Origin: an uncultured virus (IMG/VR IMGVR_UViG_3300028610_002615)
Taxonomy: Duplodnaviria; Heunggongvirae; Uroviricota; Caudoviricetes
Direction: 5' to 3' (one strand)
Virus record (IMG/VR): IMGVR_UViG_3300028610_002615
Length of the DNA stretch: 20,000 nucleotides
Shown: positions 3,247 through 15,051 of the stretch, in pieces
Layout: each line of letters starts with the position of its first letter
Numbering within the stretch: the stretch's first letter is position 1
Notes under the pieces: generated by a model
Database searches by the model: none
What the model was told of the DNA's origin: nothing
Seen by the model: the letters and a program-made list of their open reading frames with translations, nothing else
Translations under genes and position numbers: made by a program

Positions 3247-3332
3247 TGCGGTGTCGAGAAGCCTGGACCATCTCGCTGGGCTCATAACCCAGTGGTCATT
3301 TGACCCCGGGGGTTCGAATCCCCCCACCGCTA
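3247..3332 (+). tRNA. initiator tRNA-fMet(CAU) with long variable arm, CCA not directly encoded
   Basis: Unpaired 1:72 (T:T), three G-C pairs in CTGGG-CTCATAA-CCCAG, T arm GGGGG-TTCGAAT-CCCCC, 15-nt variable region. Confidence 0.88.
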
Positions 3333-3348
3333 CTTTGACCCCGCTACC

Positions 3349-11051: not shown

Positions 11052-11139
11052 GCGTGGGCTGGGCATGGTTGGCGAGCCCAAGAGATTGTAAATCTCCCGT
11101 CCTCGGACTGTGGCGGTTCGATCCCGTCCCTGCGCACCA
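11052..11139 (+). tRNA. tRNA-Tyr(GUA)
   Basis: GCGTGGG/CCTGCGC acceptor, GAGA-TTGTAAA-TCTC anticodon arm, variable arm GTCC/GGAC, ACCA end. Confidence 0.9.
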
Positions 11140-11685: not shown

Positions 11686-11727
11686 TTTAGAACATATATC
11701 AAATTCCATTTATAAAGGAGACTTAGT

Positions 11728-11880
11728 ATGGAAAAAGAATGTAAAGATCCTACTGACTACAGCGAGGAAAAAAGCAGCATTCATGAAGAAACTGACTGCA
11801 TAGACGGCGCCTGCAATTGGTGTGACAATACCCCCGCACAGTCCGAAGATCGAGAATATAGTGACAAAGAAGGTGGATAG
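11728..11880 (+). CDS. acidic 50-aa leader-like peptide ending Gly-Gly-amber
   Basis: SD AAAGGAG, ATG 11728, MEKECKDPTDY...DKEGG-TAG; the frame has one more TAG (11893) and then stays open to TAA 11962-11964. Confidence 0.65.
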   Translation: MEKECKDPTDYSEEKSSIHEETDCIDGACNWCDNTPAQSEDREYSDKEGG

Positions 11881-11976
11881 GTAACCCCGCCATAGGGTCG
11901 TTCAAGAGACCCTCCTGTTGTTTTAAAACGACATATAACCGTTTTTAATGTTGATTTAAAATAACATCAAGGAGGG
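11872..11976 (+). promoter_or_regulatory. putative translational attenuator (anti-SD/SD switch)
   Basis: CCCTCCT 11910-11916 is complementary to SD AGGAGGG 11970-11976 and overlaps hairpin AGGGTC/GACCCT 11894-11913. Confidence 0.55.
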
Positions 11977-11984
11977 AATTTAGA

Positions 11985-12305
11985 ATGACTTTCAAAGAGC
12001 TTAAAAAGAAAATCAAGGAAGAGCAGAAGTTTTTAGCACAACAAATTAAACTCGGCAAGCCTTTAAGGAAACCGAAGGTTTATGATGAAGCGGAACCTGA
12101 TTCAATCACTGCTTATCATAACTTAGATTGGAATGTGAAAGAGTTTAGACATACTCATATCATGTATTGTCAATTCTTTAATAACACTCCATATGCTTTA
12201 ATTGAGCAACCCAGAGATGAGAACAAACCAAGTTCTTATATGCTCGACGCCATCAAATCTGAGTGGTTGGGGTTGCTTGATGAAGCTCTACGTGATTGTG
12301 CGTAA
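11985..12305 (+). CDS. hypothetical protein overlapping the PTH2-like gene
   Basis: Strong SD; FRHTHIMYC motif; 26-nt overlap with next gene. Confidence 0.8.
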   Translation: MTFKELKKKIKEEQKFLAQQIKLGKPLRKPKVYDEAEPDSITAYHNLDWNVKEFRHTHIMYCQFFNNTPYALIEQPRDENKPSSYMLDAIKSEWLGLLDEALRDCA

Positions 12306-12570
12306 GGACTTAACTCATTCACAACGGGCTGTGCAGGCAGGTCATGCGTTAGCAGAATACTTGCTTCACAGCCCTTATTTCCGTTGGAAAAATGAAACCC
12401 TCATCTATCTGGGTGTTAAGGGTCTCAAACAGTTAGAAAATCTAAAACGGAAATTAGAGCTACACGGTATCAACTATGTTGAATTTCGTGAACCTGATCT
12501 TAATAATGAAGTGACAGCAATTGCTTCAGATGAGGATTGTAAAATCTTCAGAAAGATGAACTTATTATGA
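12280..12570 (+). CDS. PTH2-family peptidyl-tRNA hydrolase-like protein
   Basis: KLYVIVRKDL, AVQAGHA and FREPDL..EVTAIA motifs. Confidence 0.85.
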   Translation: MKLYVIVRKDLTHSQRAVQAGHALAEYLLHSPYFRWKNETLIYLGVKGLKQLENLKRKLELHGINYVEFREPDLNNEVTAIASDEDCKIFRKMNLL

Positions 12571-12804
12571 GCACACTAGCTGAATCATTCGGTAAATTAT
12601 GCTGTGATATTTGTCCTCTTCTAAACTGTTATGAAAGGGGGAACTTGTTATAAATGCAATTGTTTCATAGATGATTCTATAAAAGTAAGAGAGCATTGTG
12701 ATCACAAAACATTGCCTTCAAACTGTCCTTTGAAAAATGGACTTATAGTCAAAGTATATATGTCAGATGAAGGTAATTTGTTAATTGGTCATGATCACAT
12801 TTAA
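12567..12804 (+). pseudogene. Cys-rich small gene apparently split by a +1 frameshift
   Basis: MSTLAESFGKLCCDICPLLNCYE stops early; the +1 frame across GAAAGGGGGAA continues GGTCYKCNC...CPL to TAA. Confidence 0.45.
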
Positions 12805-12860
12805 CTTGGTGGACTAGATATGAAGATTGTAAAATCTTCAGAAGGATGAATTTATTATGA
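12800..12860 (+). repeat. composite junction scar (copy of 13224-13236 next to copy of 12530-12570)
   Basis: 13/13 and 38/41 direct repeats. Confidence 0.85.
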
Positions 12861-13228
12861 ATGAAGAGTCCATAAGAATTGCACAAAAAATTGCTCAACA
12901 AAAACCGACTACAATTACTATTCTGGGAAATACTGACCCAACATATTCAACTACCTGTTTCTTTGAAGTGCTTATGATTAGTTCAATTAATCCTGAACGA
13001 ATGATTACTTTAGGTCATAAAAGAAAAACTTCAATATGGGTAGATAGAGTAGACCTTTGGATAATAGACACAATTAAAATTATTCACCCTGATTATGAAA
13101 TAGTTAAATTTCATGATATGTATGTTGTGGGAGAATATTCTATAGAAGAACCTCCATACTATTCTGAAGAGCATGGAGTTTGTGTCGACTATGGTGGAAA
13201 TATTGAAGTCAGGTCTTTAAACTTTTAA
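12857..13228 (+). CDS. hypothetical protein
   Basis: ATG lies in the duplicated PTH2 end (ATGA). Confidence 0.65.
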   Translation: MNEESIRIAQKIAQQKPTTITILGNTDPTYSTTCFFEVLMISSINPERMITLGHKRKTSIWVDRVDLWIIDTIKIIHPDYEIVKFHDMYVVGEYSIEEPPYYSEEHGVCVDYGGNIEVRSLNF

Positions 13229-13234
13229 CTTGGT

Positions 13235-13310
13235 GGGCCGGTAGTTCAGATGGCGGAACGAAGGACTCTAAATCCTTGCTACGTGGGTTCGAGCCCCATC
13301 CGGCCCTCCA
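13235..13310 (+). tRNA. amber suppressor tRNA(CUA)
   Basis: 76-nt cloverleaf: GGGCCGG/CCGGCCC, D stem GTTC/GAAC, AAGGA-CTCTAAA-TCCTT, GTGGG-TTCGAGC-CCCAT, T73, CCA. Confidence 0.93.
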
Positions 13311-13326: not shown

Positions 13327-13920
13327 ATGAAAAAAATTTTTGAAATCCTTAAAGAATCATTTTTGAAAGGGTTTAAGGGAGGATTCAATCTATCTCGTTA
13401 CGGCAAATTAAAAGATCCTAAACCTGAGATGCTCATAAACAAAAATCACAAATCTTTAGCTGAAAGTATATTCGATACTTCTTGCATGACTTTAAATGAA
13501 ACTGGTATAATGTATCCATCATTTTTCCTGATCAAAAAAAATCAATTTACACCGGTCATTCTTGATCCAGAGTCGTTAGAAGAAACCGATATTCAAGGGT
13601 ATGCAAGTATGGTCACAAACATTGCAGACGATCAAGACGCTGACGCTATGTTTTTCATATCTGAACAATGGAGGGTTAAAAGAAAACTAACTGACGAAGA
13701 AATAAAAGAATTTGATGAAGGTAAAAAAATTCCAAGTCTAGATCCCGACAGACAAGAGATTTTATGCCTCGTTTATCTAACTTCTAAAGGTGAAATGAGA
13801 AGTCTTATAGGAGCAATTGAAAGAGGTATTGATAATACTCCTTTTGTTAGAGAGTCAAAATGGAGTAATTACCAAGGAATGAATGCCAACAATCCCACTT
13901 TATTTCAACCTTGGAGATAG
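13327..13920 (+). CDS. hypothetical protein
   Basis: ATG after AGGAGTGGAG; FISEQW and PSLDPDRQEIL segments; ends TAG TGA. Confidence 0.75.
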   Translation: MKKIFEILKESFLKGFKGGFNLSRYGKLKDPKPEMLINKNHKSLAESIFDTSCMTLNETGIMYPSFFLIKKNQFTPVILDPESLEETDIQGYASMVTNIADDQDADAMFFISEQWRVKRKLTDEEIKEFDEGKKIPSLDPDRQEILCLVYLTSKGEMRSLIGAIERGIDNTPFVRESKWSNYQGMNANNPTLFQPWR

Positions 13921-13922
13921 TG

Positions 13923-14147
13923 ATGCATATTAAAGAGGGTCATAGATGTAAGGGTTGTGTTGCATATGACAATCTAGAATCAAAAAGTTGTAAAATATAT
14001 ATAAGTGGAAAATCTAAAGAATGCCCATGCATAACTTGTATAGTTAAAGTAATGTGTAATAAGGCATGTGAACCTTATTACCACTTAAGACGAATTGTAA
14101 ACAAACAACTATATAAACACCACCATAAAAGAGGTGAATATGTCTGA
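13923..14147 (+). CDS. small Cys-rich protein (PCxxCxxxxxC family)
   Basis: CKGC...CPCITCIVKVMCNKAC; SD GGAG. Confidence 0.7.
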   Translation: MHIKEGHRCKGCVAYDNLESKSCKIYISGKSKECPCITCIVKVMCNKACEPYYHLRRIVNKQLYKHHHKRGEYV

Positions 14148-14700
14148 AATATTGAAACAAATAAGAGCTAACCTTAAAATAGCTATGTTGGCTGAAATTG
14201 AAATTAGAAAAACTGAGTCTTCTGGAGATTTAGATTTTATAACTTCACAACAATCATTGCTTGAAAAAAGTCAGAATCAAAAAACTGTCTCCAGATCTAT
14301 CATTAGCATGTTCCCACAGATCGGAAAAAAACCTGCTGATGCAACTGACGACGATGTTATCAAGTTGCTCAAGAGGTATATTAGTCAGGAGAAAGAAAGA
14401 CAGTTATATATTGACAAACACCTAACTGAAGTTGATGTTCGCGGTCTTAATCTTGGACAACTGAAAGAAGTAGTCAATAAGAAAATCCAAGAGTTAAAAG
14501 ATTCATTAACTTCTCCAGTAATTGAAATTGCACAATCCTATCTTCCCAAACAGGCAACAAAGTATGAAGTTACTTTATGGATAGCAGAAAATATTGATCT
14601 GGCCAGCTACAAAAACAAAATGCAGGCAATGGGTCCCATCATGAAGCAATTCAAAGGTTGCGATGGAAACTTTATAAGAAGCATTTTAATGAATCTATAA
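14140..14700 (+). CDS. GatB/YqeY-like domain protein
   Basis: Helical protein with TDDDVIKLLKRYI, YLPKQ and MQAMGPIMKQFKG.DG motifs. Confidence 0.7.
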   Translation: MSEILKQIRANLKIAMLAEIEIRKTESSGDLDFITSQQSLLEKSQNQKTVSRSIISMFPQIGKKPADATDDDVIKLLKRYISQEKERQLYIDKHLTEVDVRGLNLGQLKEVVNKKIQELKDSLTSPVIEIAQSYLPKQATKYEVTLWIAENIDLASYKNKMQAMGPIMKQFKGCDGNFIRSILMNL

Positions 14701-15051
14701 GGGGGCGAAAAGGTATCGACGTGGAAGAAGAGATGATGGTTGCACTCCGGGGATGGCATTCTACCCCGAATTAACATGCCAAACTAAATATAATCGCAGA
14801 TGATTATCACACTGATCTTGCCCTAGCGGCATAATCCGTTCCACCCAATTATTCTCTCGGATTGGGATGGGGCGACGACTAGAGAGATAGATCTCAACGC
14901 GCTCCTGCCGAGCCAATGAGATCGAAATTTAGGCAGGACCCTGGCAGGGAGTTGTCGCTTACCACCCTGTCAGTATAAGAAAGCGACTATGAGTGTAGAT
15001 GCTTAATTTGAACTTTTACGGACGCGAGTTCGACTCTCGCCGCCTCCACCA
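14701..15051 (+). ncRNA. ssrA: tmRNA
   Basis: 5' GGGGGCGAAAAGGTATCGAC, G3-U70 acceptor, T arm GCGAG-TTCGACT-CTCGC, ACCA end; tag ORF 14796-14834 ADDYHTDLALAA-TAA. Confidence 0.96.

Follow-up and report, generated by a model that had tools for sequence, protein, structure and literature searches.

A conserved amber-interrupted leader upstream of a PTH2-like gene and a tRNA-CUA gene in uncultured phages: a candidate sensor of nonsense suppression

The window analysed here is a stretch of 20,000 nucleotides (nt) from an uncultured virus of the Caudoviricetes (IMG/VR record IMGVR_UViG_3300028610_002615); a short leader open reading frame (ORF) interrupted by two TAG codons, a gene termed orf106, a PTH2-like gene and a tRNA gene with the anticodon CUA follow one another on its + strand. 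The leader is preceded by a Shine-Dalgarno sequence (SD), AAGGAG (11715-11720), 7 nt 5' of the ATG at 11728; its first part (11728-11880) encodes an acidic, Cys-containing peptide of 50 codons and ends with TAG1 (11878-80). Four codons, GTA ACC CCG CCA (V-T-P-P), lead to TAG2 (11881-11895; TAG2 at 11893-95) and are followed by GGT CGT TCA AGA GAC CCT CCT (G-R-S-R-D-P-P, 11896-11916), in which RDPP (11905-16) resembles the core of the RAPP class of arrest peptides. The Pro-Pro codons also hold CCCTCCT (11910-11916), an anti-SD that is the exact complement of the orf106 SD, AGGAGGG (11970-11976). The remainder of the read-through frame (V-V-L-K-R-H-I-T-V-F-N-V-D-L-K, 11917-11964) crosses the inner stem-loop of the predicted RNA fold and stops at TAA 11962-64, 5 nt short of that SD. 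The gene orf106 (11985-12305, ATG at 11985) overlaps the PTH2-like gene (12280-12570, 96 amino acids (aa)) by 26 nt; the tRNA-CUA, of the amber suppressor type, lies at 13235-13310 and has its CCA encoded. An initial annotation, made from the letters of the DNA alone, described these elements and proposed that the position at which a ribosome halts in the leader reports the balance between RF1 and a suppressor tRNA, switching the operon on or off; all of its coordinates for the leader ORF, the TAGs, RDPP, the frame to the TAA and the anti-SD/SD complement hold.

Comparable loci were gathered around relatives of the PTH2-like gene: 15 viral loci, 51 viral loci by profile search (the 15 included) and 80 metagenome loci; after removal of identical upstream regions and of loci with less than 300 nt upstream, 92 unique loci are left. 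The 300 nt 5' of orf106 were searched with a rule that treats the three stop codons alike, requiring an SD-preceded ATG, an in-frame stop and Pro-Pro no more than 14 codons on. With TAG as the stop this pattern is found in 84/92 loci; with TAA it occurs once, in another frame of a locus already having a TAG leader, and with TGA in none of the 92. Under a stricter SD rule the viral subset gives 33/42 for TAG, 1/42 for TAA and 0/42 for TGA, and the TAG pattern has a background of one site in 260,780 nt when both strands of the flanking sequence are counted. The conservation of in-frame TAGs, part of the check that the initial annotation had put forward, is therefore borne out. The eight loci outside the pattern all still open with M-x(-x…)-TAG, the TAG coming after 2-7 codons, and end in R-A-S-P-TAG, R-S-P-TAA, N-T-S-TAA or an in-frame fusion; one of the eight (L164) has two TAGs, none of these endings and no Pro-Pro. 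The element is single-copy in the complete relative G004 (314,837 bp), where it stands in front of the orf106/PTH2-like module; the scan of G004 gave no other amber-gated Pro-Pro leader, and three hits in long ORFs look like chance frames.

The architecture of the 84 leaders is constrained at several points. One TAG precedes the motif in 28 leaders and two in 56, and the first TAG is codon 3 in 27/84; Pro-Pro follows the last TAG by 4-10 codons, the distance to the first Pro codon never falling below 4. The base 3' of TAG is a purine in 129/140 cases, compared with 56% purines locally, and TAG is followed by an Ile or Val codon in 98/140. Pro-Pro directly before the last TAG, as in the window, is present in 30/56 two-TAG leaders, so that the expected PP-TAG motif is a conserved feature; the expected GG-TAG motif is not, with Gly-Gly before TAG1 in only 1/27 leaders of the long type. 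This long type, to which the window belongs, makes up 27/84 leaders and has a homologous pre-TAG1 part of 30-60 residues with the signature …CC-E/D-x-x-E-C…E-W-x-D-D; in the remaining leaders the part before TAG1 is 1-24 residues long, mostly just two. The long-type peptide (11728-11877 and 26 relatives) is acidic, with 28% D+E, a CC-x-x-x-x-C cluster and an E-W-x-D-D end; it could act as an independent small protein or modulate the arrest. In several loci (L024 and L030 among them) a tRNA gene upstream ends no more than about 20 nt before the leader SD; leader and tRNA are thus probably transcribed together, on a long tRNA-mRNA transcript that needs processing.

The motif at the end of the leader reads RGPP in 44 of the 84 leaders, RDPP in 9, RSPP in 9 and RAPP in 4, the rest being mostly x-K-P-P-stop; the form stop-V-x-P-P-stop-G-[R/H]-S-R-D-P-P is common to the window and its closest relatives (e.g. 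L097, L099, L104 and L135). RGPP, RAPP, RDPP and RSPP are cores shown or inferred to arrest ribosomes in the available portions of PMC12992588 and PMC10951233. According to PMC12992588, varied N-terminal contexts are compatible with arrest at RGPP and RAPP; arrest is most stable at RGPP, which in many phyla is also the tetrapeptide most strongly under-represented, RDPP and RSPP are permissive for arrest and likewise avoided, and EF-P does not relieve arrest of the RAPP/RGPP class. The initial annotation had named Asp-Pro-Pro among its stalling elements; more precisely, the presumed element is an R-x-P-P core of the RAPP/RGPP class. Across the 66 R-[GDSA]-P-P leaders, Arg is encoded by AGA (37), CGT (12), CGG (5), AGG (4), CGC (4) and CGA (4), and the second Pro by all four of its codons; with all Arg and Pro codons in use, it is the peptide itself that is conserved. 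The first Pro is biased to CCT (48/66), as expected if this codon is also part of the anti-SD.

RNA from 11878 to 11999 is predicted to fold into one long hairpin of -40.6 kcal/mol (z -6.43), and 0/200 dinucleotide shuffles are as stable; the 5' arm runs from inside TAG2 to about 12 nt beyond the Pro-Pro codons. In the minimum-energy fold an anti-start segment (11894-11903) pairs with 11983-11992, the orf106 AUG included, CCCUCCU (11910-11916) pairs with the SD and so sequesters it, and 11917-11927 extends the stem; when the 5' arm is left out, 11927-11999 folds weakly (-9.1 kcal/mol, z -0.9). The anti-start segment is also the 5' arm of a local hairpin, AGGGTC/GACCCT (11894-11913), which the initial annotation regarded as a competing structure. 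This hairpin exists as an alternative and has a counterpart in 7/9 RDPP-type loci, but it lies outside the minimum-energy fold; it is a competitor, in the RDPP subfamily only, of the two-part clamp on SD and AUG.

The predicted sequestration of the orf106 SD extends beyond the window. In 40 loci of the viral set with a recognisable orf106 SD, the probability that this SD is paired is 0.85, compared with 0.61 when the upstream part is shuffled, and the mean fold z is -1.9. With a ribosome footprint of 28 nt, from -12 to +15 around the first Pro codon (geometry from the available part of PMC12992588), 0.72 of this 0.85 is made with nucleotides inside the footprint, where 0.21 is expected by length; in 35/40 loci at least half of the SD pairing falls within the motif footprint. 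Because CCUCC:GGAGG pairing is generic, a partner-swap control was used: the energy is -17.5 kcal/mol for cognate 5' and 3' arms and -10.6 for non-cognate ones (Mann-Whitney p 3.6e-35, n=84), and the cognate arm is within the best 5% of partners for 50/84 loci. The SD pairing is locus-specific, and the anti-SD pairing on which the initial annotation relied is kept at homologous loci; beyond the SD, the stems are of entirely different sequence from locus to locus. An RNAalifold analysis of eight RDPP-type leaders returns only the two helices that had been set as constraints, anti-start and anti-SD, and shows few compensatory changes, the inner stem being too variable for MAFFT to align.

The predicted linkage to the suppressor-type tRNA is likewise maintained. 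A tRNA-CUA lies 3' of the PTH2-like gene in 15/15 loci (3-kb flanks), in 43/52 loci examined with 1.5-kb flanks, the misses including one contig end and one tRNA 2.2 kb off, and in 53/57 metagenome loci with at least 700 nt downstream; four PTH2-like viral loci without leader and orf106 (L058, L060, L062 and L066) are also without tRNA-CUA. The 94 unique tRNA-CUA sequences vary in acceptor stem and discriminator base, so that the amino-acid identity of the tRNA is not inferable from them. The Prevotella phages Lak-A2, Lak-B5 and Lak-C1 (L090, L092 and L094) display a different order: a tRNA-UUA, a mini-ORF interrupted by TAA, an orf106-like gene and a distant PTH2-like gene. The Lak mini-ORF reads M-K/E-L-Q-H/F-W-TAA-V-T-…-R-G-(S)-P, and its TAA beside a tRNA-UUA means that the leader stop follows the neighbouring anticodon.

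The Lak loci appear to differ from most carriers of the module in their genetic code. Coding coverage of the Lak loci is 0.62-0.66 under the standard code and 0.87-0.88 with TAG as sense, and these regions look TAG-recoded; Lak phages are described as such in bioRxiv 10.1101/2021.08.26.457843. G004, a complete genome with terminal repeats, uses the standard code: ORFs of at least 100 aa cover 86% of it, TAG is the stop of 71/418 long ORFs (17%), and TAG-joined ORF pairs (16) are not in excess over TGA-joined pairs (20). TerL is free of internal stops in three relatives, and the genes of the window are intact under table 11. Global TAG recoding of the standard-code carriers was considered and is rejected on the G004 statistics and the uninterrupted TerL; with G004 standard and Lak recoded, the module occurs in both standard-code and recoded phages.

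An orf106 homologue, recognised with a hidden Markov model, lies directly 5' of the PTH2-like gene in 47/52 loci including the window (it is fragmented in L044), and in 72/80 metagenome loci, missing in only 2/64 of those with at least 420 nt upstream. The modelled structure of orf106 is confident and all-helical (predicted local distance difference test, pLDDT, 92.2) with a basic N-terminal helix, and the protein is conserved, with an invariant-like stretch Y/F-R-H-x-H-I-A-Y-C. It belongs to no known family: Pfam, PHROG and NCBIfam give no match, Foldseek gives none at E <= 0.001, and the best VIA-align Z of 6.2 concerns generic helical proteins only. A tblastn search of 50,697 phage records returned no orf106 match, so that these records gave no cultured phage with the full module.

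The assignment of the gene at 12280-12570 to PTH2-like proteins in the initial annotation is upheld by Pfam PF01981 (26.6 bits, cut-off 23; profile positions 1-81 of 115) and by its structural model (pLDDT 92.8), for which Foldseek ranks 1-12 are all Pth2/Bit1 with E from 2e-6 to 2e-4 and TMq of 0.72-0.81. The scores are below the equivalog cut-offs (17.4 bits compared with 82 for TIGR00283, 14.3 compared with 126 for NF003314), which marks the protein as a distant and, at 96 aa, shorter relative of Pth2; Q19, H22, D73 and T79 are invariant among its relatives. In two cultured jumbo phages, the Stenotrophomonas phage RAS14 (L086) and the Xanthomonas phage Xoo-sp13 (L087), the PTH2-like domain makes up the C-terminus of a protein of 261-280 aa whose N-terminus is HD-domain-like with an FHDIGKP motif; neither orf106 nor a suppressor tRNA is present within 1.5 kb of the domain in these two phages. 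Phage RaK2 has a PTH2-like domain between tRNA genes.

Taken as a mechanism, these features suggest a switch governed by amber suppression. In the resting mRNA the orf106 SD and AUG would be locked in the long hairpin, whose 5' arm is the leader stretch from TAG2 to just past the Pro-Pro codons. Ribosomes that start at 11728 would normally stop at TAG1 or TAG2, 5' of this arm, and leave the hairpin shut; with a spacing of at least four codons, the anti-SD would stay just clear of a ribosome that waits at TAG. Were tRNA-CUA to decode both TAGs, a ribosome could reach R-D-P-P and pause or arrest there with the anti-SD and anti-start segments within its footprint; the ribosome-binding site of orf106 would then open and orf106, together with the overlapping PTH2-like gene, would be translated. 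Serial TAGs, Pro-Pro before TAG2 and a purine after each TAG would sharpen the response to the cognate suppressor and reduce leakage.

The direction of the proposed switch is suggested by loci in which the same genes are arranged differently. In L057 and L059 the frame M-K-TAG-S-I-R-S-P… continues in frame into an orf106 without its own SD, and an ATGA on the orf106 start closes the read-through frame of L019, L020 and L063. Three uncultured huge phages, LR756501 (L093), LR756500 (L095) and LR756511 (L091), have no orf106, and their PTH2-like ORF itself holds an early TAG, opening with M-S-TAG, M-K-TAG and M-T-H-TAG respectively, and the conserved N-terminus has no other start ahead of it; in two of the three, tRNA-CUA genes are near the PTH2-like ORF. 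LR756501 also contains a second in-frame TAG inside the PTH2-like gene and, 2.2 kb downstream, two tRNA-CUA genes in tandem. The fusion, coupling and in-frame TAG variants, together with an anti-SD that lies under a motif-bound ribosome and the four-codon spacing, favour suppression turning the genes on; where the initial annotation left open whether the operon would be switched on or off, the fusion and coupling variants indicate that read-through would be the ON state. The match of TAA to tRNA-UUA in Lak points to the suppressor of the phage itself, and not to RF1 alone, as what is sensed, and the leader may measure the balance between the two.

The essentials of the earlier interpretation are thus supported, and we consider it probable that amber suppression lets ribosomes reach the arrest motif and unmask the binding site for orf106 and the PTH2-like gene, with tRNA-CUA presumably charged and suppressing and R-x-P-P presumably able to arrest in the leader context. 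That the leader is a conserved, translated, amber-dependent regulatory element is held with greater confidence than this full mechanism.

Several observations weigh against the mechanism. The loci come from related phages and are not independent samples, and the charging and activity of tRNA-CUA as well as the arrest are presumptions of the model. The standard code of G004 leaves both the purpose of the suppressor and the need of the module to respond to it unexplained. In the shortest leaders (e.g. MH-stop-VHKPP-stop) the nascent chain has only 7-8 residues at the motif, which is shorter than the RAPP arrest peptides characterised in the available literature; furthermore, blocking the footprint in silico lowers the mean SD pairing only to 0.52, and that of the window to 0.80. 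Finally, a sense codon directly follows the motif in 52/66 R-x-P-P leaders, and with a TAA near the SD, as in the window, translation or termination-reinitiation could activate orf106 without arrest.

This last point is the basis of an alternative in which read-through is coupled to orf106 with no true arrest: ribosomes would cross the stem and terminate beside or on the orf106 start, opening it or reinitiating there, and Pro-Pro would be kept mainly as the anti-SD. Such coupling accords with the frame of the window stopping just ahead of the SD, with the ATGA overlaps and the in-frame fusion of the variant loci and with the preference for CCT at the first Pro. It is nevertheless considered unlikely, as the Arg two residues before Pro-Pro is kept through six codons and followed by G, A, D or S, which matches arrest cores and is needless for an anti-SD; moreover, many leaders (e.g. 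MT-stop-IQIPP-stop-IRGPP-stop) stop right after the motif, 50-80 nt before the orf106 start and too far for coupling, and in leaders ending R-S-P-stop or K-P-P-stop the anti-SD comes after the stop.

A reversal of the switch is also conceivable, in which a ribosome held at TAG keeps the site open and read-through shuts it or triggers mRNA decay, giving negative feedback. Homeostasis of a potentially harmful suppressor would be sensible for a phage with TAG ending 17% of its genes, and when TAG occupies the A site of a ribosome on the shortest leaders, that ribosome comes to within about 0-3 nt of the anti-SD; however, the partner of the SD lies under the motif-bound and not the TAG-bound ribosome, the four-codon minimum puts the anti-SD outside the TAG footprint, and the fusion, coupling and in-frame TAG variants all need read-through for expression, which makes this direction quite improbable.

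Three further explanations are each very improbable. A transcription attenuator, in which the hairpin 11894-11913 and a U-rich tract form an intrinsic terminator that is blocked by a ribosome past TAG2, agrees with a scan that marks AGGGTCGTTCAAGAGACCCT then CCTGTTGTTT as a weak terminator-like site and with the recurrence of the hairpin in RDPP-type loci, yet two terminator-like sites are found where 1.3 are expected in shuffles, the stem has six pairs and an interrupted tail, no comparable hairpin is seen in RGPP, KPP or RSP leaders, and the full-length fold favours the long-range clamp. Two-codon minigenes of the lambda bar type offer a second model, in which M-x-TAG acts as a minigene with TAG as a real stop, the drop-off of peptidyl-tRNA signals Pth capacity and the frame beyond the stop stays untranslated; TAG at codon 3 in about a third of the leaders and the peptidyl-tRNA hydrolase fold of the regulated gene fit this idea, but the peptide is conserved in the frame after TAG, at least 30 codons precede TAG1 in 27/84 leaders, and any stop codon would do, whereas the stop is TAG alone beside tRNA-CUA and TAA beside tRNA-UUA. 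TAG as a plain sense codon (code 15), in an ordinary arrest leader sensing for example EF-P or Pro-tRNA supply, would suit the in-frame TAGs in coding regions of the Lak phages and LR756501 and the description of Lak as recoded in bioRxiv 10.1101/2021.08.26.457843, but conflicts with the standard code of the complete module carrier G004 and the intact genes of the window, with TAGs at fixed places (codon 3; after PP) instead of scattered ones, and with the TAA and UUA tRNA of the leader in TAG-recoded Lak.

The switch proposed here shares features with several known systems. Like ApdA, ApdP, ApcA and SecM, the phage leader is a small upstream ORF that ends in an R-[A/G]-P-P-type core and shares the orientation of the gene it regulates, and the downstream SD lies in a stem that a stalled ribosome would open (here in silico). 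Unlike these, its core can be reached only through one or two suppressed in-frame stops, it is phage-borne and linked to a suppressor tRNA, its input is not the pulling force of secretion, and it would control orf106 and the PTH2-like gene where theirs are sec/yidC genes. Sec/YidC substrate features are absent from the leaders, which have no signal or transmembrane segment and an N-terminus that is either acidic and Cys-rich or just 2-10 residues long; because of this and of the different downstream genes, the leader is not a Sec/YidC monitoring substrate. In prfB, which encodes RF2, an in-frame UGA is escaped by a +1 frameshift and controls the release factor itself; the phage leader likewise has an early in-frame stop at which the decoding/termination balance would be sensed, however its escape would be by a suppressor tRNA and its output the unmasking of the SD of a separate cistron.

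Engineered amber switches, in which a TAG in a leader peptide such as tnaC governs downstream genes, are described in the available part of PMC6412442, with multiplexed UAG, poly-Pro before the stop and the base after UAG as levers on read-through. As far as that part extends, the phage leader has in common with them conditional UAG read-through in a leader, two UAGs, Pro before the stop and the post-UAG base; the engineered switches are synthetic and act mostly through Rho or transcription, while the phage leader is natural, conserved and appears to use an arrest core and an anti-SD. A "code change module" of recoded phages, consisting of a suppressor tRNA, an aminoacyl-tRNA synthetase together with a release factor, is reported in the main text of bioRxiv 10.1101/2021.08.26.457843; it resembles the present module in clustering a phage suppressor tRNA with translation-related genes, and Lak phages carry both. 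The PTH2-like gene and the stop-bearing leader are not described in that main text, where the word "hydrolase" is absent, and most carriers of the PTH2-like gene and leader, including the complete 315-kb genome, use the standard code, unlike those recoded phages. Full-text literature searches and the main text of the preprint gave no account of a natural leader gated by a stop codon, nor of a module that joins a PTH2-like gene to a suppressor tRNA.

If the model holds, the leader would be to our knowledge the first natural cis-element that reads out nonsense suppression, and it would connect to RAPP/RGPP arrest peptides, so far tied mainly to protein export. It would bear on how phages install and control stop reassignment in a standard-code host and on peptidyl-tRNA and ribosome rescue; the leader is a testable handle on the timing and strength of a phage suppressor tRNA, and orf106 and the short PTH2-like enzyme are candidate parts of the code-switch machinery. 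At about 100 nt, the leader is also a compact natural part for gene switches that depend on amber suppression, and its principles are those that engineers reached independently. The PTH2-like/orf106 pair may handle peptidyl-tRNA or stalled ribosomes arising under stop read-through, and a phage transfer-messenger RNA (tmRNA, 14701-15051, + strand) 1.4 kb downstream and a YqeY/GatB-like gene fit this theme of ribosome rescue. A more tentative extension, which is possible but doubtful, is that the leader is a monitoring substrate for ribosome-rescue capacity while the genetic code is switched: the PTH2-like protein, guided by orf106, would resolve arrested or dropped peptidyl-tRNA, suppression and rescue would form a closed feedback loop, and the tRNA-CUA/orf106/PTH2-like module would be the portable core from which TAG recoding (in Lak also that of TAA) evolved.

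The surroundings of the module in the window are those of a phage-type tRNA array, with 12 tRNAs and the tmRNA by ARAGORN and nearly all genes on the + strand; no near-identical record to the window exists among the 50,697 phage records. The YqeY/GatB-C-terminal-like protein (14134-14700; Pfam 27.2 bits, cut-off 27; PHROG "tRNA amidotransferase") abuts the tmRNA, and a tmRNA adjoins the module in L003 and L005 too. Four of the tRNAs called by ARAGORN are long for their type, namely Thr (86 nt, 220-305), Gln (82 nt, 1235-1316), Met (87 nt, 3247-3333) and Tyr (88 nt, 11052-11139), and 4/12 (Gln, Leu, Ser-GCU and Tyr) are absent from the Rfam calls at gathering threshold; these tRNAs may be intron-containing, odd or over-called. 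A reading of 11860-11930 as a degenerate tRNA, prompted by the loop GTTCAAGA, was rejected, as Rfam and ARAGORN are empty there and the segment is conserved as codons. TAG terminates only 2/35 long ORFs of the window; the gene at 13327-13920 stops with TAG and has a second in-frame stop directly after it (13918-13923), a tandem that would curb read-through should the amber suppressor be active.

Two small ORFs on the + strand (12631-13228) separate the PTH2-like gene from tRNA-CUA, one Cys-rich and of 57 aa (12631-12804) and the other of 123 aa (12857-13228), which are missing in relatives whose tRNA comes about 10-40 nt after the PTH2-like gene (about 10 nt in L097). Direct repeats at 12530-12570/12820-12860 (41 nt, 93% identity) and 12797-12812/13221-13236 (16 nt, 94%) both copy the junction between the 3' end of the PTH2-like gene and the 5' end of tRNA-CUA and flank the two small ORFs; the arrangement looks like serial cassette insertion at this junction.

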